Source of the DNA: Candidatus Poribacteria bacterium
GTDB taxonomy: Bacteria; Poribacteria; WGA-4E; WGA-3G
Length of the DNA: 64,000 nucleotides
Direction: 5' to 3'
Assembly: GCA_965198235.1 (NCBI GenBank)
Contig: OZ240248.1
Span: 3,776,001-3,840,000, forward strand
Shown: positions 31,258 through 43,109 of the stretch, piece by piece
How positions within the stretch are numbered: the stretch's first letter is position 1
How the letters are laid out: each line of letters starts with the position of its first letter
Program-made: the position numbers and the translations under genes
The notes under the pieces: model-generated
Database searches by the model: none
What the model was told of the DNA's origin: nothing
Seen by the model: only the letters and a program-made list of their open reading frames with translations

Positions 31258-32163
31258 CTACGCCACAGCAGTCGAGCGAAGAACGGCTTTTATTCCTACC
31301 CAAGTAACCTTATCTTCTGCCTCGCTGACTACCTCAATACATTGAAACTGATTTGCCTCTAAAACTGACTGGACTTGGGCAAATTCAGCCTCCAAAATCC
31401 CAGAGAAAATGACGATCCCTTCAGGATAGAGCCGCTGTGCACAGAACGGAATCATCGGAAGAATTGCCTTTGTTAGGATATTCCCAATGATGAGATGGTA
31501 TCTGTTTTCTGTTCCCTTGAGCCCATCGCCTTGACATAAACACACCTGCAATGCCACATCGTTTGCCTGAAAATTGGCTGCTGCAACAGGGATTGCTGTT
31601 GAATCAATCTCAATGGCATCAACGTGTTTCGCTCCTAACTTAATAGCAGCAATTGTTAGGATACCTGAACCTGTCCCGATGTCAGCAACGCGATGGTGCG
31701 ATTCGACGGTGCGTTCCAATAATTCGAGGGTGAGTCGTGTGGTTGGATGGTAACCTGTTCCAAATGCCATACCCGGATCAAGTTGAATCAGGATTTCCGT
31801 TTTGTTGTGGGGAACATCGCTCCACGTTGGGGCAATGACAATCCTTCTACCAACACGCTGCGGTGGGAAGGCGGATTTCCATGCCTCTTCCCACTTCTCG
31901 GATTTGACCTGTTTTAAATCAATCGTTGCAGGGTGTGGTTGGATACCCCATGTTGGAAGTTCCGTAAGGAAGTCGCGGAGTTTCTGCATCCGTGCGCTAA
32001 CTCTGTCATCTAAAGGGTAGTGAGCGATGAGGTTTACTGTGGATGCCTCGTTATCCTTGAGTTCAACGCCAGTTGCACTTAATTCAAAGAGAAAGTGCGC
32101 GACGGCTTCGGATGCTTCTTGAGAGGTAGTCACCGTAATTCTTGCCCAGTCCATGTTTACCAC
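31258..32163 (-). CDS. prmA: Ribosomal protein L11 methyltransferase
   Basis: LDPGMAFGTGYHPTT, DIGTGSGIL; downstream of dnaJ. Confidence 0.93.
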   Translation of the reverse strand: MVNMDWARITVTTSQEASEAVAHFLFELSATGVELKDNEASTVNLIAHYPLDDRVSARMQKLRDFLTELPTWGIQPHPATIDLKQVKSEKWEEAWKSAFPPQRVGRRIVIAPTWSDVPHNKTEILIQLDPGMAFGTGYHPTTRLTLELLERTVESHHRVADIGTGSGILTIAAIKLGAKHVDAIEIDSTAIPVAAANFQANDVALQVCLCQGDGLKGTENRYHLIIGNILTKAILPMIPFCAQRLYPEGIVIFSGILEAEFAQVQSVLEANQFQCIEVVSEAEDKVTWVGIKAVLRSTAVA

Positions 32164-32205
32164 GTTTCTGCGTTGGCACTTTCTCAGAAAACTGACCGGT
32201 AGTCT

Positions 32206-33330
32206 CTATTCGGGTTCCTCGTCTTCATGTCTACCGAGCAGCTTATCCCAGAATCCGCCGTGTTCGCTTTGATGGGATTCTCCTCGAAGTTTCGCAAATT
32301 CTTCTAACGTTTTTCGCTGTTCCGTGTTGAGATGCACTGGTGTCTCAATCTCTACCCTCACGACCAGATCCCCTGAATAGGAGCGTCTGTAATGTGGAAC
32401 CCCTTTGTTAGGGATACGCAGTTGGGCACCGTACTGTGTACCCGGTGGAATATGCAATTCTTCATTTTCATCAATACTATCAACTTCAATTTTCCCACCG
32501 AGGGTGGCTTGGACGAACGAGATTTTGGCGGATGTAATCAGGTCGTTTCGGTCACGTTGGAAACGTTCGTGCGGTTCGACATTGATAACGACAAACAAAT
32601 CACCCGGAGGCGCGCCGTTTACACCCGCTTCGCCTTCACCTCGCAGTTGGTACTTGAAACCTGTATCAACGCCTTTGTCAATATTTAACGGAATGTCGCG
32701 CGTGTTTCGAACAACGCCTCTTCCGCCACAGGGTTGGCAAGGTTCTGTAATAATTGCACCTTCCCCACGACATCTCGGACAAGTTCGCGACATTGTGAAA
32801 AAACCTTGTGATTGGCTGATTTGACCTCTGCCGTAACATTGCGGACACGTTACGGGACTCGTTCCTTTTCTGGCACCACTGCCTTCACATGTGGGGCACG
32901 ATTCAATCCGTGGCACTTGGATTGTGACCTCTTTGCCGTGAATAACGTCTTCCAATGTTACGTCGAGGTTATATTGTAAACTGCGTCCGCGTTTGGGTGT
33001 ACGCTGCGTACCACCGCTGAATCCACCGAAGAGGTCGCCAAAGACATCACCGAAAATGTCGTCAAGGTTCACACCAAAACCGCCGAAGTCGCTCCCCATG
33101 CCCTCCAGTCCTGCGTGCCCGAACCTATCATAACGGTCCCGTTTCTCAGGGTCTCGCAGCACTTCATAAGCCTCTGTGGCTTCTTTGAATTTGTCTTCGG
33201 CGACTTCATCGCCCGGGTTCTTATCCGGATGGAATTGTATGGCGAGTTTGCGATAAGCCTTCTTTATTTCGTCTTCGTCGGCATCACGATTGACGTTCAG
33301 AATCTCATAATAGTCGCGTTTTTGCGTCAT
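32206..33330 (-). CDS. dnaJ: Chaperone DnaJ
   Basis: J-domain HPD, G/F region, four CxxCxGxG repeats. Confidence 0.97.
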
Positions 33331-33348
33331 ATATTGCCCTTCCTGAGT

Positions 33349-34200
33349 CTATTCAGTAGTGTCAGTAGCATCCGTATCATCCGATACGTCGTCTGATGCT
33401 TCTTCTTCGGCGGGTCCCTGTGAAACGACAACTTGCGAGGCGCGCAAGACACGGGCATGCAACATATAACCACGCCGAAATTCCTCAATAACTTTTCCCT
33501 CGGGTACATCATCCGATGCTGTGACAAGGAGTGCCTCGTGCTGATTTGGATCGAATGTTTCACCAACTGCTTCTATCGGTGTAAGTCCGTGGATTTTGAG
33601 TGCATCTAATAATTGTTTATGGACAAGTTGCACGCCTTCGTTGAAAGTCGTGAAAGTTGGCGAAGCCTCGCTCGTCTCGCCTTGTTCTGCTACGCTTTTG
33701 ATCGCGGCTTCCAGACTGTCCAAGACCGGGATCATCCCTTCTAAAATTCCCTCATTGGCGAATTTGAGCTGCCGTTGATAATCAGCTTGCAAGCGTTTTT
33801 TGGTATTCTCAGCTTCTGCTGCTGTGCGCAGGAGACGATCGCGTTCCGCCTTGTATTCCTCATGTACCTGTTGCACAGCAGTCTCTACCTCTTTTTCGAT
33901 TTCTGTGTGCAATAAGTCTTCACGTTCTGCTTCGTATTGCTCGCGCACCCTTTGTACGATCGCCTCTACTTCTTCTTTGACTTCCGAAGTGAGGTTGGCA
34001 GCCGTTTCTTCGACTGGCGCGATGCGCTCTTCTATCTCCTTTTTCACTTCCGATTTAACTGTATCAAGTGCCGTCTCCGCGATCTCTCGCATCCGTTCGA
34101 CAAGTGTTTTTTCTTTGCCGTCAGTGGTATCGTTATCAGCAGACGCTTCTGTTTCTGTTTCTTCTCCTGTTTCTATGTGTATCTCTTTAACTTCAGGCAT
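33349..34200 (-). CDS. grpE: Nucleotide exchange factor GrpE with extended, internally duplicated N-terminal coiled coil
   Basis: LLRTAAEAEN.KKR, FDPNQHEA, GYMLHARVLRASQVVV. Confidence 0.92.
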   Translation of the reverse strand: MPEVKEIHIETGEETETEASADNDTTDGKEKTLVERMREIAETALDTVKSEVKKEIEERIAPVEETAANLTSEVKEEVEAIVQRVREQYEAEREDLLHTEIEKEVETAVQQVHEEYKAERDRLLRTAAEAENTKKRLQADYQRQLKFANEGILEGMIPVLDSLEAAIKSVAEQGETSEASPTFTTFNEGVQLVHKQLLDALKIHGLTPIEAVGETFDPNQHEALLVTASDDVPEGKVIEEFRRGYMLHARVLRASQVVVSQGPAEEEASDDVSDDTDATDTTE

Positions 34201-34263
34201 AATGAAGTCCTTTTCTCTTTCTATAGGCGTGCTTGGGAATCACGCTTGTTTTAGTAGTCCATT

Positions 34264-35010
34264 TTAGCCGTGAACGGCGTTAGCGAATGCCCTCATCAGT
34301 TCGAGGGATCCGTTTTCTTCAAGAATGTTACCTGTGACGATGAAGTCCGCACCGGCTTCTACCTTTTTAGCGGCAATTTCTGGGGTGCGGATGCCTCCAC
34401 CGACGATTAGCGGGATGCTGATTTGATTTTTCACTGTTGTGATCATCTCTTCTGGGACAGAGTGCACTGCGCCACTTCCTGCCTCCAGATAAACCATCTG
34501 CATGCCGAGATACTCTGCAGCCAATGCATGCGGTCCCGCAATGTCGGGTTTATCGCGTGGGATGGGCATTGTGCCACTCATAAATTCAACAGCGGTTTTG
34601 TTACCGCCTTCAATCAGCATGTAGCCAGTTGGAATGGGTTTAAGCGCGTGACGTTGTATCCACGGTGCCGCTTTGACCTGTTCGCCAATGAGATAGTTCG
34701 GGTTGCGTCCACTTATGAGACTGATATACAGAATCGCATCAGCGTGGGGGGTGAGGTGCATCGAATCGCCCGGAAATAGCACCAGCGGGAGTTCTGTTTC
34801 CTGCTTAAGGGCTTTCGCGATGAGGTGCAAATCGTTCGTTAAAAAACTGCCACCGAGCAAAATTGCGTCTGCACCCGCCTGCTCTATTTCGCGCGCAAGC
34901 TTGATGCATTTTTCAATTTCACACTGCTCCGGATCAATTAGAACGAAATAACCAGCATGGTGCTTTTTCAATACCTCGTGAAAGTAGTTAAGAACCCAAT
35001 TTGATCTCAA
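34264..35010 (-). CDS. Geranylgeranylglyceryl/heptaprenylglyceryl phosphate synthase (group II-like GGGPS)
   Basis: LIDP, LGGS, LFPG, SLISGRNPNYLIGEQV, YLEAGSGA, VGGGIR. Confidence 0.9.
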   Translation of the reverse strand: MRSNWVLNYFHEVLKKHHAGYFVLIDPEQCEIEKCIKLAREIEQAGADAILLGGSFLTNDLHLIAKALKQETELPLVLFPGDSMHLTPHADAILYISLISGRNPNYLIGEQVKAAPWIQRHALKPIPTGYMLIEGGNKTAVEFMSGTMPIPRDKPDIAGPHALAAEYLGMQMVYLEAGSGAVHSVPEEMITTVKNQISIPLIVGGGIRTPEIAAKKVEAGADFIVTGNILEENGSLELMRAFANAVHG

Positions 35011-35129
35011 ATGCGATTTTCCTTCTGTGCCTATGATAAATCTCGGTTTGAATGCTATGCCCTTTCTGATATTGCGGATTTATGGAGCGCCAGTTATTTT
35101 AAGAATTCTATCATATTTATGGCGATTTG

Positions 35130-36350
35130 TCAAATTCTGTGTTGTCGCGTGAGTTCATAAAGTAGAACACCCGCGGCGACTCCTACGTTGAGTGATGATT
35201 GCCCTGATGCCATAGGGATGCAAACTAATTCCGTGCAGCAGTCACGTGCATCAGCGGAGAGACCTGTATTCTCATTACCTACGACGATAGCCGTGGGTCG
35301 TGTAAATTCCATTTCATGCAGTTGGTTTTTGGCACTTGCTGTGGCACCCAGCACTTGCCAACCTGAGGCACGGAGTACATCAATCGCATCACCGATGTCT
35401 GGTATGTAGAATAAGGGTAAACGACCAACTGCCCCGCGGGAAGCACGGATGCAGTTTTTATGAAAAGGGCTTGCACCTCCACCGCTCAATAGGACGGCGG
35501 TGACTCCTGCCGCGTCTGCTGTCCGTAGCGTCATTCCAAGATTATCAGGATTTCCAATGTTCTCTGCGATGAGTAATATACATCTCGGACTAAAGTGAAA
35601 ATTGAGACTTCCGGACTCCGAAAGGAAGTTGGGGTAGCTGAGATGAACCGAAGCGATTATAGATGGCACGGGTCGCGTCGTCGTAATTGAACCCATCACG
35701 CCATCGTTCACTTGATAAGAGGATAGGTTTTCTGCCGCTGCACGTTTGAGCAAAGCTCTCCCTTCGAGTGTCGCCACAAATCCTGTCGTATGGAGAAGTA
35801 TTTCGATCGGAAGTCCGTCTTCCACTGCTCGTTCTACTATCAGATGTCCTTCGATGATAAATTGGGAGTGTTCAAGTTTCCCTTTCAAAGAGGCTAATTT
35901 GCGAATATGCGAAGCTATTGTGTCCTTCCGTTTTGAGACAGTTCGTTGTTCTGCGTTTGTGCTGCTGCCGCGTTTGATACCCCGATAGAAAGAACCCGTA
36001 CCTGTCTGAACCACGCTCCCCTCTAAAACGTCGTGGATTCTGTTTTCTATCCACTTTTCGCTAAAATGAAATAGACCTGTGTATCGCCTCGGAAAAGCGA
36101 TGAGTAGTTCTCTCAAGCTCCGTTCAGTTGTCGTTGTGAGATGAACTCGGTAGTTACTGTCAGATGTGTCCTCCGGTTCTAACAACATAACCCCATCAAG
36201 CTGCTGCCAGCCTGTAACAAATACCTCGTATGCAGGGTGCCATGTGCCCGTTTTGCAGAAGGTATAATACGCCTGCTTAAAACGGGAAACGGCATCTGCA
36301 TCCAAGCTCTCTTTCTCCAAGAAAGCAATAACCTTATCGTAGTTTATCAT
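35130..36350 (-). CDS. TrmH/SpoU RNA methyltransferase with N-terminal extension
   Basis: NPDNLGMTLRTADAAG, VGNENTGL, IPM...SLNVGVAAG; ATG overlaps upstream stop (ATGA). Confidence 0.88.
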   Translation of the reverse strand: MINYDKVIAFLEKESLDADAVSRFKQAYYTFCKTGTWHPAYEVFVTGWQQLDGVMLLEPEDTSDSNYRVHLTTTTERSLRELLIAFPRRYTGLFHFSEKWIENRIHDVLEGSVVQTGTGSFYRGIKRGSSTNAEQRTVSKRKDTIASHIRKLASLKGKLEHSQFIIEGHLIVERAVEDGLPIEILLHTTGFVATLEGRALLKRAAAENLSSYQVNDGVMGSITTTRPVPSIIASVHLSYPNFLSESGSLNFHFSPRCILLIAENIGNPDNLGMTLRTADAAGVTAVLLSGGGASPFHKNCIRASRGAVGRLPLFYIPDIGDAIDVLRASGWQVLGATASAKNQLHEMEFTRPTAIVVGNENTGLSADARDCCTELVCIPMASGQSSLNVGVAAGVLLYELTRQHRI

Positions 36351-37195
36351 AGAAACGTTCCGAGATAGATTGCGCCGAGTCCGACGAATATATCCCACTT
36401 CATCCAACGTTGAATGGACGCACAACTTTCTCTGGAGGCATCTTGACACAGACGAATTGCCAAACCGATTAGCACCACATCAACACCGATTAAGACGACA
36501 AGCAAGTAGTGCCATGAATACCAACCGAATAAATATGGAATGGGGCTAAACAGAATAACAGATGCCATGAAACCAATGGCTGTCCGGACTGCAATCCGTG
36601 GATTGAGCGTAGCAAGCGTTTTCGCGTTATTTTTCAGGTCCCCTTCTGTGTCCTCAAGGTCTTTGACGATTTCCCGCGCTGTCGTGAACAAAAAGGCGAA
36701 GATTGCTGGAATGAGTGTGCCTTGCACTGAATCTATCGCTACACCGCCAGCAATGAAGGTTAAACCCGTTAATCCGCTGACGACTAAATTGCCGACAAAA
36801 GGGGTGCGTTTCAACCAGAAAGCATAGCTTACAAGTGCAACGAACACAAAGATGGCAATACCTGTAGCATTTCTATTAATAAGAGCCCCCAACCAGATGC
36901 CGATTACGGTAAGTACTATCGCAAAAATTAGTGCATCGGTACGCCGAATGCGTCCAGAAGGTAGCGGGCGCCGCGGGCGATTGATTCGGTCAATGTTGTA
37001 ATCACAGTAATCGTTTATGGCGTTTCCTGCGGAAAGCAAGACAAGCGCGGAGACAGAAACCAACAGAAGTCGGATATTGGCAAGGTTTTCCATGTTCCCT
37101 TGGCTGGCAAACATCCCACCGAGCCATGCAGAGATGAAGGCGATAATTCCGTTAAGTGGACGCGCCAACTCAAGATACGCGATCAATGTCTTCAT
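36347..37195 (-). CDS. UbiA-family digeranylgeranylglyceryl phosphate synthase (DGGGPS-like)
   Basis: LELARPLN, AGNAINDYCDYNIDRINRPRRPLPSGRI, AREIVKDLEDTEGD. Confidence 0.85.
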   Translation of the reverse strand: MKTLIAYLELARPLNGIIAFISAWLGGMFASQGNMENLANIRLLLVSVSALVLLSAGNAINDYCDYNIDRINRPRRPLPSGRIRRTDALIFAIVLTVIGIWLGALINRNATGIAIFVFVALVSYAFWLKRTPFVGNLVVSGLTGLTFIAGGVAIDSVQGTLIPAIFAFLFTTAREIVKDLEDTEGDLKNNAKTLATLNPRIAVRTAIGFMASVILFSPIPYLFGWYSWHYLLVVLIGVDVVLIGLAIRLCQDASRESCASIQRWMKWDIFVGLGAIYLGTFL

Positions 37196-37405
37196 TGTTT
37201 GTGATCGGGACCGTTGAATGATAATCTGTTAGGGGTAACGGATACTGAAGCGCGTTCCATAATACCAGCGTACGGATTGCAATATTGCTTGGACCAGAGG
37301 AGGTACAGTGGAAAAAGAACGCCTGTGCAGAAACCGGATGCGTTGGCGTACAAGTCGAGATGGGTCTTCCCTTTAGATGAAAGAGGTAGGGGCATTCAGT
37401 TCTTC

Positions 37406-37623
37406 TGTAGGAGGGAACTCCGATTCCCGACACTATTGGAAACCATCGGCTATTTTACTGACGACTGACCGCTGACTGCTGATGGCTATTCTGTAGGAGG
37501 GGGGAAATCCGCAGGGAAATCCGCAGAAATACCCAAGCAAAAACACCCCTATCAAAAACCCCAAGCAATCCGCAGAAATACCCAAGCAAAAACACCCCTA
37601 TCAAAAACACTCCGATTTCCGAC
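37406..37623 (+). repeat. Two REP copies (GTAGGAGGG..CTCCGATT[CT]CCGAC): first intact (37407-37431), second (37493-37623) expanded by tandem modules
   Basis: Direct comparison of the two copies; repeat CCGCAGAAATACCCAAGCAAAAACACCCCTATCAAAAAC occurs twice. Confidence 0.8.
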
Positions 37624-37853
37624 TCCTCTCGCAAATCAAGGAAAATCGCGAAAACTATGGTGAATCCTAAAAATGAATAGACAGTTGCTCAGTGAACCAA
37701 CCGCTCACCCCTGCTGGCGAGGATTGTATCCTCGCCTCCCCGCAATGTCCAAGTAATTGTGGGTTTTACCATAAATGACCCTAAAAAGAGGCGCATAGAG
37801 TAGACAAATCCGAGTGTGACTGATAGTGAGACACCCCGTTTCCGGTAATATGC

Positions 37854-38906
37854 CTACGATTCATCCTTCAGTTCTTGAATTTTCGCTTCCAGTTCCGCAA
37901 CCCGTTTTTGGAGTTTAGTGAATTCAGGGAGTAGTTCCGGCAATTTCCGAGTCGCCGCGTGAATTCGTAATTCCTGTTTGTGAGGGCGTGCGGGGAATCC
38001 AGACAGATGACTGCCGGCAGGCATATCCTTTGTAACTGCGGATTTGGCGTAAACAACACTGTCTTCGCCGAGGGTCAGGTGTCCTGCTGCACCTCCATGC
38101 CCCGCAATGTTCACTCGATCACCGAGCGTCGCGCTGCCAGCGATACCGACTTGTGCGGCGAGGCAGCAATCTTCTCCGATGACAACGTTATGTGCGATTT
38201 GGACGAGATTATCCAATTTGGTGCCGCGTTTGATAAGCGTTTCAGAAAGTGTCGCTCTATCAATGGTAGTATTCGCTCCAATTTCAACATCGTCTTCAAT
38301 GACCACGGTTCCGATTTGGGGAATTTTGTGGTGTCGGTTGCTAACAGGTGCGAATCCGAAGCCGTCGCTGCCAATAACTGCACCGCAGTGGATGATCACC
38401 CGGTTGCCGATGGTTACCTCTTCTCGAATACTGACATGTGGATAGATAAGACCATCAGTGCCGATCTTGGTTCCTTCACCGATGTAGGCAAAGGGCTGAA
38501 TAACGGTATCATCTCCAATCTCAACGTTGTCAGCGATATAAGCAAACGCTTGGATTGAGACGCGCTCACCGAGTTTGACGTTCTTTCCTAAAATTGCAGT
38601 CTCATGAACCCCGGGAAGTGCGCGATGGTTTTTGTCCCACGCGAACATTTCTATAACTTTGACGAAAGCCCAGTAGGGGTTCTCAACACAGATAGTAGGC
38701 TTACCGTTACCGTTGACACCGCGGCCAATAATAATTGCGCCGGCTTGTGTTGTCGCTATGGCAGCGAGGTATTTGGGGTTAGCAACAAAGGTAATCTGAC
38801 TTGGGAGTGCCTCTTTGATTCCAGAAACTCCTGTAATTTCAATATCACCGTTCCCAGAAAGATCGCCGTCCAAGCGTTCACAAATTTCCTTAAGCTTCAT
38901 ACGCAT
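37854..38906 (-). CDS. lpxD: UDP-3-O-acyl-glucosamine N-acyltransferase
   Basis: ITFVANPKY, hexapeptide repeats, GSDGFGF, KIPQIG.V.IEDDVEIGANTTIDR, DNLVQIAHNV. Confidence 0.95.
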   Translation of the reverse strand: MRMKLKEICERLDGDLSGNGDIEITGVSGIKEALPSQITFVANPKYLAAIATTQAGAIIIGRGVNGNGKPTICVENPYWAFVKVIEMFAWDKNHRALPGVHETAILGKNVKLGERVSIQAFAYIADNVEIGDDTVIQPFAYIGEGTKIGTDGLIYPHVSIREEVTIGNRVIIHCGAVIGSDGFGFAPVSNRHHKIPQIGTVVIEDDVEIGANTTIDRATLSETLIKRGTKLDNLVQIAHNVVIGEDCCLAAQVGIAGSATLGDRVNIAGHGGAAGHLTLGEDSVVYAKSAVTKDMPAGSHLSGFPARPHKQELRIHAATRKLPELLPEFTKLQKRVAELEAKIQELKDES

Positions 38907-38991
38907 TTAGCCTTAATCCTTTCTCCGTAGATGTGAATGGTTATTCGGGGTTACAAACCCCTCCCACAACTGGAGTTTAGGCAGTGTAGCG

Positions 38992-39537
38992 TTATTCGGA
39001 GTTTTCGTTCATCAAGCCGATTAACTGTTGTGTCAAATCATATTCCTTTTTCACATAAAGTGTGATGAGTCGTTTTTCGAGGATGATGTCAAAATCTTCG
39101 GACTCACCGACTTTGACAATCAGTTCTTGAAGGCTGTTGTAAATCGGTTCCATTAACTCTTGCTCTTTTTCAAGCAGTGCTTGCTGGCCGATTTCGACAT
39201 CACGTTGGTATTCCTGCTGTTTGAGACGAATTTCGTTTTCCAAATCCGCGGTCTGTGCTTTTTCAACGAAGAGTTCTGTTTTCGCCTTCTTTTCCTGCAG
39301 TGCTCTGATATCGTCTCCTAACTGCTGCAACTTCGTTTTCAGGCGTTCGCTTGCCGCTTGGAGCAGTTCGGTTGCATCCGTCGCTTTTTGGGATCCTTCT
39401 AAAACCTGTTGTGTGTTTACGACACCGATTTTGAAAGATTCCTGCCCGATACTTCCCGTACTGAAACAGAAAACTGTGAGACCGATAATTAATAGAATTA
39501 GGTGTGCTTGGCAAGCACCCAACCGAAATGGTTTCAT
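38992..39537 (-). CDS. skp: OmpH/Skp periplasmic chaperone
   Basis: KIGVVN.QQV, coiled coil, FDIILE...YDLT; between bamA and lpxD. Confidence 0.85.
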   Translation of the reverse strand: MKPFRLGACQAHLILLIIGLTVFCFSTGSIGQESFKIGVVNTQQVLEGSQKATDATELLQAASERLKTKLQQLGDDIRALQEKKAKTELFVEKAQTADLENEIRLKQQEYQRDVEIGQQALLEKEQELMEPIYNSLQELIVKVGESEDFDIILEKRLITLYVKKEYDLTQQLIGLMNENSE

Positions 39538-39713
39538 AATTTGAATCCTTACTTTGTCATATAGATGGCAAGCAAATTTCAAGAGTTTGTTGTTACACGC
39601 TGACACAGCGAGCAAAAATAAAAATTATACTTGCCGTGAAAAAAGATCTGCACCTGGATGCTAATAATGTGTGCTGTTAGTACTTTCAATACCTGCCAGT
39701 GCAGGACGTTGTT

Positions 39714-42164
39714 TTAGAAGCCCGGACCAACCGTGAAATGGAATTTGCCAGCGGGTTCGCCGCTGACGCGATCCAAGCCATATCCCCAACCTAATCGAAC
39801 TAACATGCCGAGCATGGTAAACCGAGCCTCAAGACCGAGTCCTTTTTTCATGCTGATTTGGTTGAAGACGTTTGTAGTGCTTTCATCCCATACCTGCCCT
39901 ATGTCAAAAAACAGAGCTGCTGTGAGTTGCTGAGAAATTGGGACACGATACTCAAAGTTTGCAAAGAATACCTTATCACCACCGTACGGATTGATAAAAC
40001 CCGATTCATCTGGATCAGGATAGATTTCCCAATCTTCGTAGCCACGAATGCTATCTACACCACCGAGGAAAAAGCGTTCATAGAACAGGAAGTAAGCATC
40101 GGTGCTTTTACTTCGCATGATACCTGCGCGGCCATGCACGGCGATAACGTGGTTCCACCATCCACTGTAGAACCAACTCGCGTCCGCATAATATTTTTGG
40201 AACTTGTTGTCCGCTCCAAGAATACCACCGGAGTATTCATAAGAAAGTGTATGAAATGAACCCGCTGTTGGGTCAAACAGGGAGGTACGATAATCGCGGG
40301 TGTCCCTTCCGAGAGCGAACAGAATACTTCGTGTGGAGCGGTTGTATAACTCCCGATCAGGGTTGTGTGATTCTACATGTTCATTCCGAAAACGCACGGA
40401 CAAATCAATGTCATGTGCGATGGGTCTTCCGAGTGTTAGCGATGCCCCTCGTCTTGCCCAAACGTATCGGTCGTATAAGTAGTTACTCCCTACACGACGG
40501 TTATAGAGAGCACCGATCGTTCCGTAGTAGCGACGGAAGCGGCGGTTGTCGTAAATCCGGGCATTAAGCCGGGTGGGTGTTCCCAAAATCCAAGGTGTGC
40601 CAAAACTGAGTTCAGCTGTGTGGTGATCCCTGGTGCCTAATTCGCCTTTTAAGTGGACCCGATACGCTTGTCCACGAAAGTTATTTTGTCCGACCTCTGC
40701 GACACCGAAGATACCGCCTTCGCTGCCGTATCCACCTCCGAGACTCAGCATTCCTGTTCGCGGTGTTTCCGCGATATTAACTCTTAACTCCTTTCGATTC
40801 TCTTCACCGGTATCACTCGGAACAAAATCAACAGCACGAATAAAAGAACCCATCTGGAACAAACGTTGCCGCGCTTTGCGCAGGGATTTAACATCTAATA
40901 ACTCATCCGACTTGATGTCCAAAAAATCCAACTCACGTTTGACAACGTGTTCTTTCGTTTTTTCTAATCCGGTAATGATTACCTTGTCGATAATTATGAC
41001 ATCTCCTTCGTTGATTTTCAAGGTAATGTCAACCACGCCGTCCACTTCATTGAAAGTCGGAGTCGGTAGGACTTCTGAAAGTAGGTAACCTTTATCGAGA
41101 TAAGCTTGCTGTAACTTTGCGATTGATTCGTCGAAAGTAGCGCGGTTAAAGACCTCACCTTCTGCGGGGTCGAGCATCCCGCGTATCTTTTTTTCAGAAA
41201 AGAGGTTCTTAGCCCCGGCTTCCACTTCAAGTGTATAGGTTCCGATAATAAATTCGGGACCTTCGTCAACAGTAATGTCAAGCATTAAGCCGGTCTTGTC
41301 CTCTGTGAACCGTTTTTCGTAGCCGATGACCTTCACCTGTGCAAAGCCTCGATCCTGATAGTAATTTCGGATGTTCAGAGATAAATCTTCTTCCTCAAAC
41401 AGCATCTGATCGAAGGGTTTCCCGGTGCGGGTTTTGAGTTTTTTCTGGAGTGTATTCACGGAGATATGTGTGTTTCCAATAAAGTTGATTTCCTCAATCC
41501 GCACCCTCGGTCCTTCGTTTATCTCAAACGTGACTTGGACAGTATTCGCCTCTTCGTCTTTATCTCCAAGGTGGGTTTGGATGCTGGCAAGATAGTATCC
41601 CTTTTCGTGATAAAGTTTTTGTAGCGCTCGCTCGCTTTCCCACCGTCGCCGGTCGCCATAAATTTCTGAAGGACGAAGTATAATCTCATTCTTAACTTTG
41701 CCGGTACTCAAATTTTCGTTTCCAATAATGTTAATTCCAGAGATTTTTGGACTTTCGACGACCTTGTAAATAATTTCTAATCCACCGCCTTCAAACGGCT
41801 TCACGTCTACTGTGAGTTCGGAGAAGAAGCCTGTATCTTTGAAGAGGCTTTTCAGATCTTGCGTGAGGAGTTCTTCAGAGACTTCCTGCTCGACCTGCGT
41901 CTGAATAAGGGTACGCAGCATATCTTCGGAGGAAGTTTTCACACCTTCAAAAGAGATTTTCTTGACGAGGAGCCTCGAATCGCTGACGGGTTTGGTAGTG
42001 TTTGCTGTGGTGTCTTTATCAGACTCAGTTCCCACCTGCTGTTCGGTGGTCGTAGCTGCCTGGGGACCAAATACTGGTTTTTCGGTCTCTTCTGCAAAAG
42101 CGGCGATCGCTGCAAGTCCGATGAATAGGCTTATGAGAATAAAAACGTTTTTTGGCGCACTCAT
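39714..42164 (-). CDS. bamA: Outer membrane protein assembly factor BamA
   Basis: POTRA repeats (ISFEG, INIIGN, INFIGN), FFLGG.DSIRGY, C-terminal F. Confidence 0.93.
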   Translation of the reverse strand: MSAPKNVFILISLFIGLAAIAAFAEETEKPVFGPQAATTTEQQVGTESDKDTTANTTKPVSDSRLLVKKISFEGVKTSSEDMLRTLIQTQVEQEVSEELLTQDLKSLFKDTGFFSELTVDVKPFEGGGLEIIYKVVESPKISGINIIGNENLSTGKVKNEIILRPSEIYGDRRRWESERALQKLYHEKGYYLASIQTHLGDKDEEANTVQVTFEINEGPRVRIEEINFIGNTHISVNTLQKKLKTRTGKPFDQMLFEEEDLSLNIRNYYQDRGFAQVKVIGYEKRFTEDKTGLMLDITVDEGPEFIIGTYTLEVEAGAKNLFSEKKIRGMLDPAEGEVFNRATFDESIAKLQQAYLDKGYLLSEVLPTPTFNEVDGVVDITLKINEGDVIIIDKVIITGLEKTKEHVVKRELDFLDIKSDELLDVKSLRKARQRLFQMGSFIRAVDFVPSDTGEENRKELRVNIAETPRTGMLSLGGGYGSEGGIFGVAEVGQNNFRGQAYRVHLKGELGTRDHHTAELSFGTPWILGTPTRLNARIYDNRRFRRYYGTIGALYNRRVGSNYLYDRYVWARRGASLTLGRPIAHDIDLSVRFRNEHVESHNPDRELYNRSTRSILFALGRDTRDYRTSLFDPTAGSFHTLSYEYSGGILGADNKFQKYYADASWFYSGWWNHVIAVHGRAGIMRSKSTDAYFLFYERFFLGGVDSIRGYEDWEIYPDPDESGFINPYGGDKVFFANFEYRVPISQQLTAALFFDIGQVWDESTTNVFNQISMKKGLGLEARFTMLGMLVRLGWGYGLDRVSGEPAGKFHFTVGPGF

Positions 42165-42227
42165 AATTAGATGTCCTCCTGTATGTTGTAGGCTTGCCAC
42201 GCGTTTGTGGCACGGTATATTATACCG

Positions 42228-43109
42228 TCATACTTCAGCGGTATATATTGGGGTGCCGCAGCTATGTGCGAACTGCCGAAATGCAGCAATTAATTTTTCT
42301 GTCACCTTTCCGGGCTGCCCGTTCCCGATGCCGCGTCGGTCTATTTTCACGACAGGTATAACCTCGGCGGCTGTGCCGGTTAGAAAACATTCATCCGCAA
42401 TGTAAAGGTCGTGTCGTGTAAAAACGCGCTCTTCAACTTGCATTCCAGCATCACGTGCAAGATCGATAACGCTGTTCCGGGTTACACCTTCCAGAATTCC
42501 CATGTGAACCGGTGGCGTGACAAGGACCTCATTCTTTACCCAGAAAATATTGTCACCGCTACATTCAACAACATAGCCTTCTGCATTAAGCATCAAGACC
42601 TCTTCTGCACCCGACTGTTTCCCTTCAATTTTTGCTAATATATTATTTAGATAGTTCAGCGACTTAATGCGTGGATTAATGGCTTCTGAATAATTCCTTC
42701 GAACAGAGGCAGTTACGATTTCCAATCCATCTTCATAGAATTTCTGTGGGTAGAGGGTAATTTTATCTGCAATAATAATGATGCTCGGCGTTGGACATTT
42801 ATCCGGATCGAGTCCGAGATCTCCTACGCCGCGAGTTACAACCAATCGAATATAGGCTTCCGTGAGATGATTGCGACGGAGTGTTTCCAGAACCGTTTCC
42901 TTCATCGTTTCAATAGGGATAGGGATCTGTAACATGATTGATTTCGCAGAATCGTAGAGTCGCTCAAGATGTTCATCGAGTTTAAAGACTCTACCGTTAT
43001 AGGAACGGATGCCTTCAAAAACACCGTCACCGTAGAGCAAACCGTGATCGAACACCGAGACCTTTGCTTCTGCTTTTGGTAAAAATTCTCCGTCGATGTA
43101 AATCAACAT
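42228..43109 (-). CDS. ilvE: Branched-chain amino acid aminotransferase
   Basis: DHGLLYGDGVFEG, KSLNYLNN, LEGVTR, FLTGTAAEV. Confidence 0.93.
   Translation of the reverse strand: MLIYIDGEFLPKAEAKVSVFDHGLLYGDGVFEGIRSYNGRVFKLDEHLERLYDSAKSIMLQIPIPIETMKETVLETLRRNHLTEAYIRLVVTRGVGDLGLDPDKCPTPSIIIIADKITLYPQKFYEDGLEIVTASVRRNYSEAINPRIKSLNYLNNILAKIEGKQSGAEEVLMLNAEGYVVECSGDNIFWVKNEVLVTPPVHMGILEGVTRNSVIDLARDAGMQVEERVFTRHDLYIADECFLTGTAAEVIPVVKIDRRGIGNGQPGKVTEKLIAAFRQFAHSCGTPIYTAEV

Follow-up and report, generated by a model that had tools for sequence, protein, structure and literature searches.

Two genes that lie close together in a Poribacteria genome probably code for functional members of the archaeal ether-lipid pathway: a GGGP synthase (GGGPS) and a UbiA-family prenyltransferase resembling DGGGP synthase (DGGGPS). 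Both are found in a 64,000-nucleotide stretch of DNA, here called the window, and their sequences support reading the two proteins as the archaeal ether-bond pair. To our knowledge, discussion of bacteria that possess both enzymes has so far concerned the FCB group, with one functional test, that of Cloacimonetes genes in E. coli. The trait known from other bacteria is here extended to one more phylum, Poribacteria.

We propose that GGGPS would form the first ether bond by coupling geranylgeranyl diphosphate with glycerol phosphate, and that the membrane UbiA enzyme would attach the second geranylgeranyl chain to give DGGGP. Passage from DGGGP to polar lipids would probably be via the bacterial CdsA and head-group enzymes. 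For the substrates, the product and its stereochemistry, as for the amount made and the membrane that would bear the lipid, we infer rather than observe.

The two prenyltransferases

The GGGPS gene (34264..35010, minus strand) starts with TTG and encodes 248 aa. A PcrB-family TIM-barrel domain spans the full length of the protein (PF01884, E 4.3e-48; residues 15-242 against profile positions 5-222 of 226), and relatives of 248 aa cover 100% of it. It exceeds the cut-offs of NCBIfam TIGR01769, "phosphoglycerol geranylgeranyltransferase" (226.7 bits against 161.55), and NF003198 (290.6 against 247), and does not reach the narrower GGGPS models NF003201, NF003202, TIGR04146, and TIGR04147. Its top solved relatives, aligned over nearly the whole length, are 4mm1 (E 6.7e-58) and 4jej (E 1.7e-52), which we take to be the Methanothermobacter and Flavobacterium enzymes. 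Together with 6jo3 and 6nke, these are presumably group II GGGPS and match at about E 1e-58 to 1e-44; 2f6u, 3vzx, 1viz, and 4nae, which we take to be group I or heptaprenyl enzymes, reach only E about 1e-7. By these matches the protein stands nearer to group II than to either the group I or the heptaprenyl enzymes, as the sequence-only reading had claimed, and its predicted reaction is the joining of GGPP and G1P to yield GGGP.

Just upstream of this gene, a sigma-70-like promoter match (35105..35133, minus strand; TTGACA, 17 nt, TAGAAT, with a preceding TG) agrees with 11 of 12 consensus positions. Such sites are not above chance across the 6-kb region (7 found, 7.5 expected), so we treat this one as a consensus match only.

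The UbiA gene (36347..37195, minus strand) encodes a protein of 282 aa with a PF01040 domain (E 4.7e-44). The DGGGPS-type motifs noticed in the initial reading, NAINDYCDYNIDRINRPRRPLPSG and REIVKDLEDTEGD, are indeed there, both Asp-rich motifs (NDYCDYNID and KDLEDTEGD) are present, and the protein retains 14 of 14 invariant columns of a 39-sequence family alignment (A1), those motifs included. It has one strong solved relative, the M. jannaschii DGGGPS 6m31 (E 2.4e-36); the next is a chlorophyll synthase at E 3.5e-6. The activity predicted for it is geranylgeranyl transfer to GGGP.

In a DGGGPS-family tree of 113 rows, the protein falls within one Poribacteria clade (SH-aLRT 95), in a family to which 15 archaeal rows and FCB sequences, including one of a Cloacimonetes genome, also belong; because the backbone is not resolved, the tree gives no closeness to the tested Cloacimonetes enzyme. 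An MqnP-like protein and a haem o synthase are encoded by other genes of the same genome; in the tree their branches measure 4.9-5.3 changes per column, well away from the DGGGPS family (4.5-5.3 for the MqnP-like, CtaB, and fourth UbiA paralogs). By the solved-structure matches and this tree, the protein groups with DGGGPS and apart from the quinone, haem, and chlorophyll prenyltransferases; the initial reading had named joining the quinone or haem enzymes as the outcome that would count against it, and the MqnP-like and CtaB proteins are instead far outgroups.

The UbiA protein scores below the curated equivalog cut-off of every NCBIfam DGGGPS model. Its top models are NF009523, "prenyltransferase" (230.2 bits against 269), the DGGGPS model NF009521 (211.5 against 296), and, third, NF009522 (174.9 against 353). 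These scores suit an alternative that we consider possible, though unlikely, in which the pair makes another prenylated glycerol or product: a monoether, a lipid of another chain length, a minor lipid anchor, or an envelope-glycoconjugate carrier, nearer the products of Bacillus PcrB than a bulk membrane lipid. UbiA enzymes switch substrate readily, and many bacterial "DGGGPS" carry other annotations, as far as the accessible text of PMC6431249 goes. The partner enzyme argues the other way, as GGGPS lies near the C20-type group II structures (about 1e-58) and not near heptaprenyl PcrB or MoeO5 (about 1e-7). Further points on both sides of this alternative come from the rest of the genome and from the relatives and are given below.

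Supply and processing of the proposed lipid

The sequence-only reading had called for a search of the genome for GGPP synthase, CarS, and geranylgeranyl reductase, of which only the first has a counterpart. A GGPP-synthase-like gene is present (L025:1339-2403:-). Its best NCBIfam models, IdsA and GGPP_syn, both stay below cut-off, and its best solved relatives are the GGPP synthases 1wmw (E 2.2e-66) and 1wy0. It is the sole short-chain prenyl synthase in the genome, with a chain length that is predicted, and as such it speaks against a product other than DGGGP. The genome also carries dxr of the MEP pathway; with both genes present, the donor substrate could be made. No CarS was found in this genome, the sole PF01864 match turning out to be the bacterial cdsA (PF01148, E 1.8e-60), which lies between frr and dxr.

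Nor does this genome, 96.3% complete, have a PF22578 match that would mark a geranylgeranyl reductase of the type found in the cluster of its relatives. Its best match to TIGR02032 (L018, 132.7 bits against 158.8) was rejected as a reductase; Pfam Trp_halogenase and the NCBIfam halogenase CmlS fit it better, and it shares 23-24% identity with the cluster reductases. Given that the relatives' reductase is missing here, the chains should stay unsaturated, and the most likely product, as predicted from the gene content, would be unsaturated digeranylgeranylglyceryl-phosphate lipids.

The origin of the glycerol-phosphate backbone is less straightforward. A 344-aa Fe-ADH_2 protein resembles G1PDH (L001:904-1938:-); its best NCBIfam model is NF002022 (127.7 bits against a cut-off of 413), and among its best solved relatives are both G1PDH and glycerol dehydrogenases. 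The G1PDH-like gene is found in 49 of the 121 sampled Poribacteria genomes, in none of the 32 of genus g2, which retains the pair, and in two genomes without the pair; coupling of this gene to the pair is thus unsupported by its distribution. Neither GpsA nor PlsY was found in the window genome, and no GpsA was detected in family f1, which invites the question of how that family obtains its glycerol-phosphate backbone.

Tes and Mss homologs are reported in Poribacteria MAGs in the accessible text of PMC11868695. We screened for Tes among 11 ORFs that carry a CxxxCxxC motif and are 400 aa or longer, none of which NCBIfam called Tes; two belonged to no family and had no solved relative, and two were B12-binding radical SAM proteins.

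It is very unlikely, in our view, that the enzymes salvage or break down archaeal ether lipids or isoprenoids from the sponge's archaeal symbionts instead of making lipid de novo. The sequencing runs that contain this stretch, sponge metagenomes and metatranscriptomes, would fit such a role, and a reverse, catabolic role has been suggested for FCB bacteria without G1PDH (accessible part of PMC6431249). The GGPP-synthase-like gene and dxr tell against it, there is no hint of catabolism among the neighboring genes, and the Cloacimonetes homologs run in the synthetic direction according to the available portion of PMC7852524.

Gene neighborhood and conservation in the phylum

Upstream of the UbiA gene, on the same minus strand, lie bamA (Omp85 with five POTRA domains, 39714..42200; PF01103 and PF07244), the skp/OmpH chaperone gene (38992..39615; PF03938, E 2.8e-23), and lpxD (lipid A N-acyltransferase, 37854..38906; PF04613 and Hexapep), so that the pair does stand downstream of lipid A and outer-membrane genes, as had been noted at the outset. 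The downstream neighbor of GGGPS is grpE (33349..34200, minus strand; PF01025), followed by dnaJ (32206..33330; DnaJ domains) and then prmA (31258..32163; PF06325). An Rfam scan of 33000-39000 gave nothing at E up to 0.1. Placement of the cluster within an envelope-biogenesis block behind lpxD would also suit an anchor or a glycoconjugate carrier as the product.

The initial description of a co-oriented pair parted only by a TrmH gene holds for the orientation, all three genes being on the minus strand, and for the single gene between; that gene can be assigned only to the SpoU family. It encodes an RNA 2'-O-methyltransferase (35130..36350, minus strand) of 406 aa, starting from an ATG at 36350 that overlaps the UbiA stop as ATGA, with PF00588 (E 2.1e-35) and PF22435; the N-terminal ~148 residues match no family. 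No single NCBIfam name applies, RlmB being the best and TrmH the next, all below cut-off. We rejected it as a pathway member: it is absent from between the pair in genomes G110 and G106, has no match in the loci of families f4, f5, and f7, and belongs to an RNA-methylase family. It is probably a housekeeping passenger.

Among the 121 sampled Poribacteria genomes, a DGGGPS-like gene is found in 101 and GGGPS in 100; 100 have both, 1 has one alone, and 20 have neither. Where both are present, they are no more than 3 kb apart in 64 of the 100 genomes and no more than 10 kb apart in a further 17 (81 in total). Of 16 Poribacteria-type loci, 15 have lpxD no more than 6 kb from the UbiA gene, mostly as its immediate upstream neighbor. 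Pairing and the place behind lpxD are conserved phylum-wide. Taken alone, shared absence says little, because one deletion removes adjacent genes together. In genus g9, 13 of 14 genomes lack both genes at completeness of 96-99%. The 20 genomes that manage without the pair indicate that its product is dispensable in some lineages, which is again in keeping with a product other than a bulk membrane lipid.

Of the 44 other genomes in the genus, 42 carry the two genes with undamaged reading frames. The dN/dS values are 0.03-0.08 for GGGPS and 0.06-0.15 for the DGGGPS-like gene, similar to those of the neighbors lpxD (0.03-0.09) and grpE (0.05-0.13). On these comparisons the pair is under strong purifying selection and retained by descent. 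Contigs from one sponge metatranscriptome study span GGGPS, SpoU, and DGGGPS, bridging the DGGGPS/SpoU junction; they come from that one study, with DNA carry-over possible and cover partial in runs X2-X4, from which gaps we draw no conclusion.

In deeper Poribacteria lineages, an archaeal-type geranylgeranyl reductase gene stands between GGGPS and the DGGGPS-like gene, frequently with UGA in place of the catalytic Cys codon, and a second UbiA gene comes after lpxD. The reductase carries PF22578, scores 212.8 and 236.7 bits with TIGR02032 (cut-off 158.8), and has as its best model digeranylgeranylglycerophospholipid reductase. With a reductase between the pair, the ancestral cluster looks like a three-step archaeal lipid module. 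The reductase's best model argues against another product; the second UbiA gene adjoining the cluster argues for one. The cluster-type reductase is found in 35 of the 121 genomes of the phylum and in 3 of 44 in the genus of the window genome. Loss of the reductase lineage by lineage predicts natural variation in chain saturation.

The second UbiA gene beside lpxD is likewise absent from the window genome. At its position in relatives is the 658-nt lpxD-UbiA spacer (37196..37853), in which dispersed repeats and a direct repeat are seen and which has 358 blastn matches within the genome, its own counted in. The relatives' gene aligns over its full length in L071, and fragments persist in L078, L138, and L139. 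In the spacer, tblastn gives short colinear traces of its C terminus at E 2e-5 to 4e-4 with a tiny database, and the spacer may possibly hold faint remains of the gene. That the second UbiA gene and the reductase were lost together was considered and is unsupported: they occur in 7/44 and 3/44 genomes of genus g1, with only G084 in common, and in 0/32 and 8/32 of genus g2.

That the two remaining genes are functionless leftovers of a decaying pathway is hardly credible: the reductase and second UbiA gene are already gone from this lineage, the spacer that follows lpxD is full of repeats, and some lineages have lost the pair, but the frames are intact throughout most of the genus, dN/dS (0.03-0.15) equals that of lpxD and grpE, and every invariant catalytic residue is retained.

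Returning to synthesis of an archaeal-type lipid, one can envision a much stronger version, which we put forward tentatively and hold to be rather doubtful: that Poribacteria naturally build a real share of a membrane from archaeal-type diether phospholipids, fully unsaturated in this genus. The pathway, given its place behind bamA-skp-lpxD, would be tied to envelope biogenesis and, as a module of DGGGPS, reductase, and GGGPS, would have passed down vertically from the ancestor of the phylum; the glycerol-phosphate backbone would be supplied in a noncanonical way, since family f1 has no detectable GpsA and the window genome no PlsY. If true, Poribacteria would offer a natural example in which a mixed membrane could be tested. 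The "lipid divide" that separates archaea from bacteria is relevant to how early cells evolved. Poribacteria are abundant as sponge symbionts, in hosts open to sampling.

Comparison with known systems

The Bacillus PcrB, or heptaprenylglyceryl phosphate (HepGP) synthase (PDB 3vzx, 1viz, 4nae), shares PF01884 with the window GGGPS, but the match is only E about 1e-7, and the corresponding model NF003197 gives 36.5 bits against a cut-off of 260. The UbiA protein matches the archaeal DGGGPS of M. jannaschii (PDB 6m31, 6m34, 7bpu) over its full length, residues 2-279 against chain positions 6-279, with both Asp-rich motifs conserved. It differs in having a bacterial host, in falling under the NCBIfam cut-offs, and in being only 33-39% identical to the sampled archaeal homologs.

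The nearest parallel is with Cloacimonetes and other FCB bacteria. Co-occurrence of GGGPS and DGGGPS there, mentioned in the sequence-only reading, agrees with the accessible text of PMC7852524 (Villanueva et al., ISME J 2021) and PMC6431249 (Coleman et al., GBE 2019). As far as those texts go, the likeness includes the same two families in a diderm bacterium that also bears bacterial lipid genes, the lack of CarS with bacterial cdsA as the presumed stand-in, and, in Black Sea Cloacimonetes MAGs, co-localized GGGPS and DGGGPS genes (PMC7852524). In E. coli, without a specific reductase, the Cloacimonetes homologs yielded PG-archaeol with eight double bonds, according to the available portion of PMC7852524; our literature search for lipid or enzyme data on Poribacteria genes found none.

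NCBI places Poribacteria under "Bacteria candidate phyla," outside the FCB group. The phylum is not in the table of Coleman et al. in the accessible part of PMC6431249, and the trees of PMC7852524, as far as its available text goes, may include Poribacteria sequences. Relatives of the window genome hold a reductase within the cluster, often with UGA, unlike Cloacimonetes and unlike the window genome itself. Co-localization of the pair is seen in 81 of 100 Poribacteria genomes with both genes, compared to 0 of 64 non-Poribacteria loci (40 with both flanks complete). Again in contrast to Cloacimonetes, the Poribacteria cluster is placed after bamA-skp-lpxD, which makes this a phylum outside FCB with a phylum-wide clustered pair beside outer-membrane and lipid A genes.

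Gene order and the two enzymes

All long ORFs across 31258-43109 of the window lie on the minus strand, in the order class IV aminotransferase, bamA (39714-42200), skp/OmpH (38992-39615), lpxD (37854-38906), a UbiA protein (36347-37195; 282 aa), a SpoU methyltransferase (35130-36350), a PcrB/GGGPS protein (34264-35010; 248 aa), grpE, dnaJ and prmA. The sequence-only reading, which had the GGGPS and UbiA genes co-oriented with one methyltransferase gene between them, after bamA-skp-lpxD, is thus confirmed on this point. The SpoU start codon shares the sequence ATGA (36350-36347) with the UbiA stop, which sets the SpoU protein at 406 rather than 439 residues. Its N-terminal extension of about 148 residues (35907-36350) has no Pfam match, and most f1 and f2 loci retain a full-length SpoU match between the pair. 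The 119-nt gap ahead of the GGGPS gene contains a sigma-70 promoter match at 11/12 positions, of a kind not enriched regionally.

The 248-aa protein is well above the NCBIfam cut-off for phosphoglycerol geranylgeranyltransferase (TIGR01769, 226.7 bits versus 161.55) and closely resembles solved GGGP synthases (4mm1, E 6.7e-58; 4jej, E 1.7e-52); structures of the A. fulgidus-type enzyme, heptaprenyl PcrB and MoeO5 match at about 1e-7 at best. For the 282-aa UbiA protein, the leading NCBIfam matches, NF009523 plus the DGGGPS models NF009521 and NF009522, each fall short of the cut-off. Its sole strong solved relative is the M. jannaschii DGGGP synthase (E 2.4e-36, residues 2-279), followed by chlorophyll synthase (E 3.5e-6), and it retains 14/14 invariant residues of a 39-sequence family alignment. 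Three further UbiA genes are encoded in the same genome (G000, of genus g1 in family f1): an MqnP-like one, a haem o synthase adjoining a CtaA-like gene, and a fourth that is divergent. Since separate MqnP-like and haem o synthase genes exist, the quinone and haem roles are already filled. The fourth gene (G000:C1:3697024-3697944; L017:1336-2259, minus strand) lies about 79 kb ahead of the window start, adjoins a beta-helix/NosD-like protein, and scores 131.9 bits with NF009523 and 104.8 bits with the DGGGPS model NF009521.

Descent of the UbiA gene and distribution of the pair

A quick IQ-TREE run on the UbiA family (113 rows, 282 columns; L094 omitted as too short, L128 for an internal stop) put all 32 Poribacteria rows in one clade (SH-aLRT 95) together with L068, an untitled locus with Poribacteria synteny, and branching inside the clade matched the family codes. 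The tree thus points to descent of the gene within Poribacteria. Two large FCB clades join the same unresolved backbone as this clade, as do 15 archaeal rows, all from a phylum that has one homolog each in 41/41 genomes. The refuting outcome named in the sequence-only reading did not occur: the UbiA protein of the window stands apart from quinone and haem prenyltransferases, and the MqnP-like, CtaB and fourth UbiA proteins of G000 sit on far branches of 4.5-5.3 changes per column.

Across 121 Poribacteria genomes, including G000 itself (5.17 Mb, 2 contigs, 96.3% complete), matches at E<=1e-20 were found for the DGGGPS-like UbiA in 101 and for GGGPS in 100. Both genes occur in 100 genomes, neither in 20, and UbiA alone in one (G103, in 230 contigs). 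Among the 20 are 13 of the 14 genomes of genus g9, at completeness 96-99%. Such shared absences are weak evidence alone, because one deletion or assembly gap can remove adjacent genes. Where both are present, the pair lies within 3 kb in 64 genomes, at 3-10 kb in 17, at 10-15 kb in 1, on a single contig but over 15 kb apart in 7, and on separate contigs in 11.

A wider search with a 9-sequence alignment, at one genome per species, kept 80 loci: 15 titled Poribacteria, L068, and 64 others. These 64 include Zixibacteria, KSB1, Bacteroidota, Ignavibacteriota, Kryptoniota, Calditrichota, Latescibacterota, Gemmatimonadota, Cloacimonetes, WOR-3 and Chlorobiota, the rest being records titled Deferribacteres or just "bacterium" and one "Halobacteria archaeon." In 15/15 Poribacteria-titled loci the 6-kb flanks of the UbiA gene contain GGGPS; it was not found in those of L068, nor in any of the 64 (both flanks complete in 40). 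GGGPS is encoded elsewhere in the genomes behind three non-Poribacteria loci, at 56% (Cloacimonetes), 47% (Zixibacteria) and 43% (archaeal) identity. The nearest named proteins and loci to those of the window come from "Candidatus Poribacteria bacterium," a phylum that NCBI places under candidate phyla, outside the FCB group.

A reductase and a second UbiA in the older cluster

In deeper Poribacteria lineages (families f7, f4, f5 and f3, represented by G002, G006, G081, G053, G064, G101, G091 and loci L061 and L084), a geranylgeranyl reductase lies between the pair (PF22578, E 1e-20 to 1e-28). The two of these cluster reductases that were scanned reach 212.8 and 236.7 bits with TIGR02032, versus a cut-off of 158.8, and their top model is digeranylgeranylglycerophospholipid reductase. 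In G002 the reductase is fused to a two-cluster ferredoxin; in other relatives a ferredoxin-like piece is just upstream. A second UbiA gene (UbiA2) sits in relatives between lpxD and the DGGGPS-like gene. Because the deeper lineages have UbiA2 after lpxD and the reductase inside the pair, we infer that the older layout is bamA-skp-lpxD-UbiA2-DGGGPS-reductase-GGGPS. Families f2 and f3 (genus g7) carry the SpoU gene as well as the reductase.

Of the 121 genomes, 35 gave a match to the cluster-type reductase, among them 3 of the 44 other genomes of genus g1 but not G000. The suggested genome search for a geranylgeranyl reductase thus came back empty for the cluster type, by PF22578 profile as by tblastn. 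The only tblastn match in G000 to the cluster reductases, a halogenase-like flavoprotein 23-24% identical to them, was rejected as a candidate. UbiA2 occurs in 29/121 genomes and in 7/44 other g1 genomes, each of those seven with one TAA, and was not found in a search of G000. The fourth UbiA was rejected as its ortholog; tblastn with three UbiA2 proteins gave no G000 match at E<=1e-3. In a close relative (L071) UbiA2 aligns over its full length between lpxD and DGGGPS, and fragments lie in the spacers of L078, L138 and L139. The corresponding spacer in the window (37196-37853; 658 nt) has short, colinear, weak matches to the UbiA2 C-terminus, the rest being a dispersed repeat to which blastn finds 358 matches genome-wide, a count that takes in the spacer itself. 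This gap is down to 12-29 nt in close relatives. Contigs from RNA libraries show very high depth at 37366-37793.

At the very position where G002, G101 and G105 encode Cys (PVR-C-AEG), the cluster reductase of other relatives has an in-frame TGA: L131:6973-6975, L132:6885-6887, L135:6677-6679, L061:7969-7971, L084:7421-7423 and, on the minus strand, L136:7174-7176 and L133:7309-7311. A TGA is present in 27 of the 35 matches of the phylum, and in 7/7 loci a hairpin begins about 16 nt past the TGA. G000 has tRNA-SeC and SelA, and SelA was present in 5/5 relatives tested. The TGA-bearing reductase probably contains selenocysteine. A literature search pairing selenocysteine with geranylgeranyl reductase returned, to judge by their titles, only unrelated papers. 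The 44-kb second contig of G000 may duplicate part of the main contig, because two weak SelA-family matches (G000:C2:38166-38921 and C1:813584-814336) have near-identical scores and both lie in open frames of 387 aa.

Lipid pathway and likely product

G000 has dxr and cdsA, together with one long-chain prenyl synthase and one short-chain synthase whose top solved relatives are GGPP synthases (1wmw, 2.2e-66); the GGPP synthase that the sequence-only reading proposed to look for thus has a candidate gene. CarS, sought on the same grounds, is absent by profile search of the genome. A 344-aa Fe-ADH_2 protein, an uncertain candidate, has G1P dehydrogenase as its top NCBIfam model, at 127.7 bits far under the cut-off of 413, and both G1PDH and glycerol dehydrogenase structures are among its solved relatives. 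The gene is found in 49/121 genomes, 40/44 of the other g1 genomes and 0/32 of g2, and also in G049 and G078, which are without the pair. There are three PlsC-type acyltransferase domains; searches of G000 found neither PlsY nor GpsA (PF01210 just 25 bits, PF07479 none). The GpsA C-domain (PF07479), found in 10/10 bacterial control genomes, occurs in 19/81 genomes sampled: f3 13/13, f4 2/2, and all sampled f6, f7 and f8, with none in 53 other f1, 6 f2 or 2 f5 genomes.

With moderate confidence, we think it most likely that the pair would use GGPP and glycerol phosphate to build diether lipids of the DGGGP type, that bacterial CdsA would activate the product next, and that the chains would remain unsaturated in this genus. 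The main rival, in which the pair makes a different prenylated product, we regard as possible, if doubtful. A salvage role seems quite unlikely. That the pair is a relic is very improbable. By Nei-Gojobori comparison of window genes with up to 14 relatives (pairs with estimable dS), dN/dS was 0.03-0.08 for GGGPS and 0.06-0.15 for the DGGGPS-like gene, with lpxD at 0.03-0.09, grpE at 0.05-0.13 and SpoU at 0.08-0.21; judged by these ratios, the pair is not decaying. One sponge metatranscriptome study supplied four runs whose contigs match the window at 95% or higher. Those of run X1 span GGGPS, SpoU, DGGGPS, the DGGGPS/SpoU junction (36172-36759) and the DGGGPS start with 229 nt upstream (36867-37424). 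Such contigs do not show which strand was transcribed or how strongly, and carried-over DNA is a possible source.

As the sequence-only reading stated, the gene trait is already published for the FCB group (excerpts of PMC7852524 and PMC6431249), and Poribacteria extend it. A full-text literature search on Poribacteria with GGGPS, DGGGPS, archaeol, PcrB or UbiA found, in the portions of text returned, no Poribacteria passage on these enzymes; excerpts of a Black Sea study report Tes and Mss homologs in Poribacteria MAGs (PMC11868695), and some Poribacteria UbiA proteins are already annotated publicly as DGGGP synthase. What is added here is the phylum-wide clustering of the pair, the reductase in the putative ancestral cluster, and its apparent loss in this genus. 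Set against excerpts of PMC7852524, Poribacteria are a second case of a co-localised pair, beside Cloacimonetes, and unsaturated chains would be expected here, as in the E. coli strain expressing the Cloacimonetes genes.
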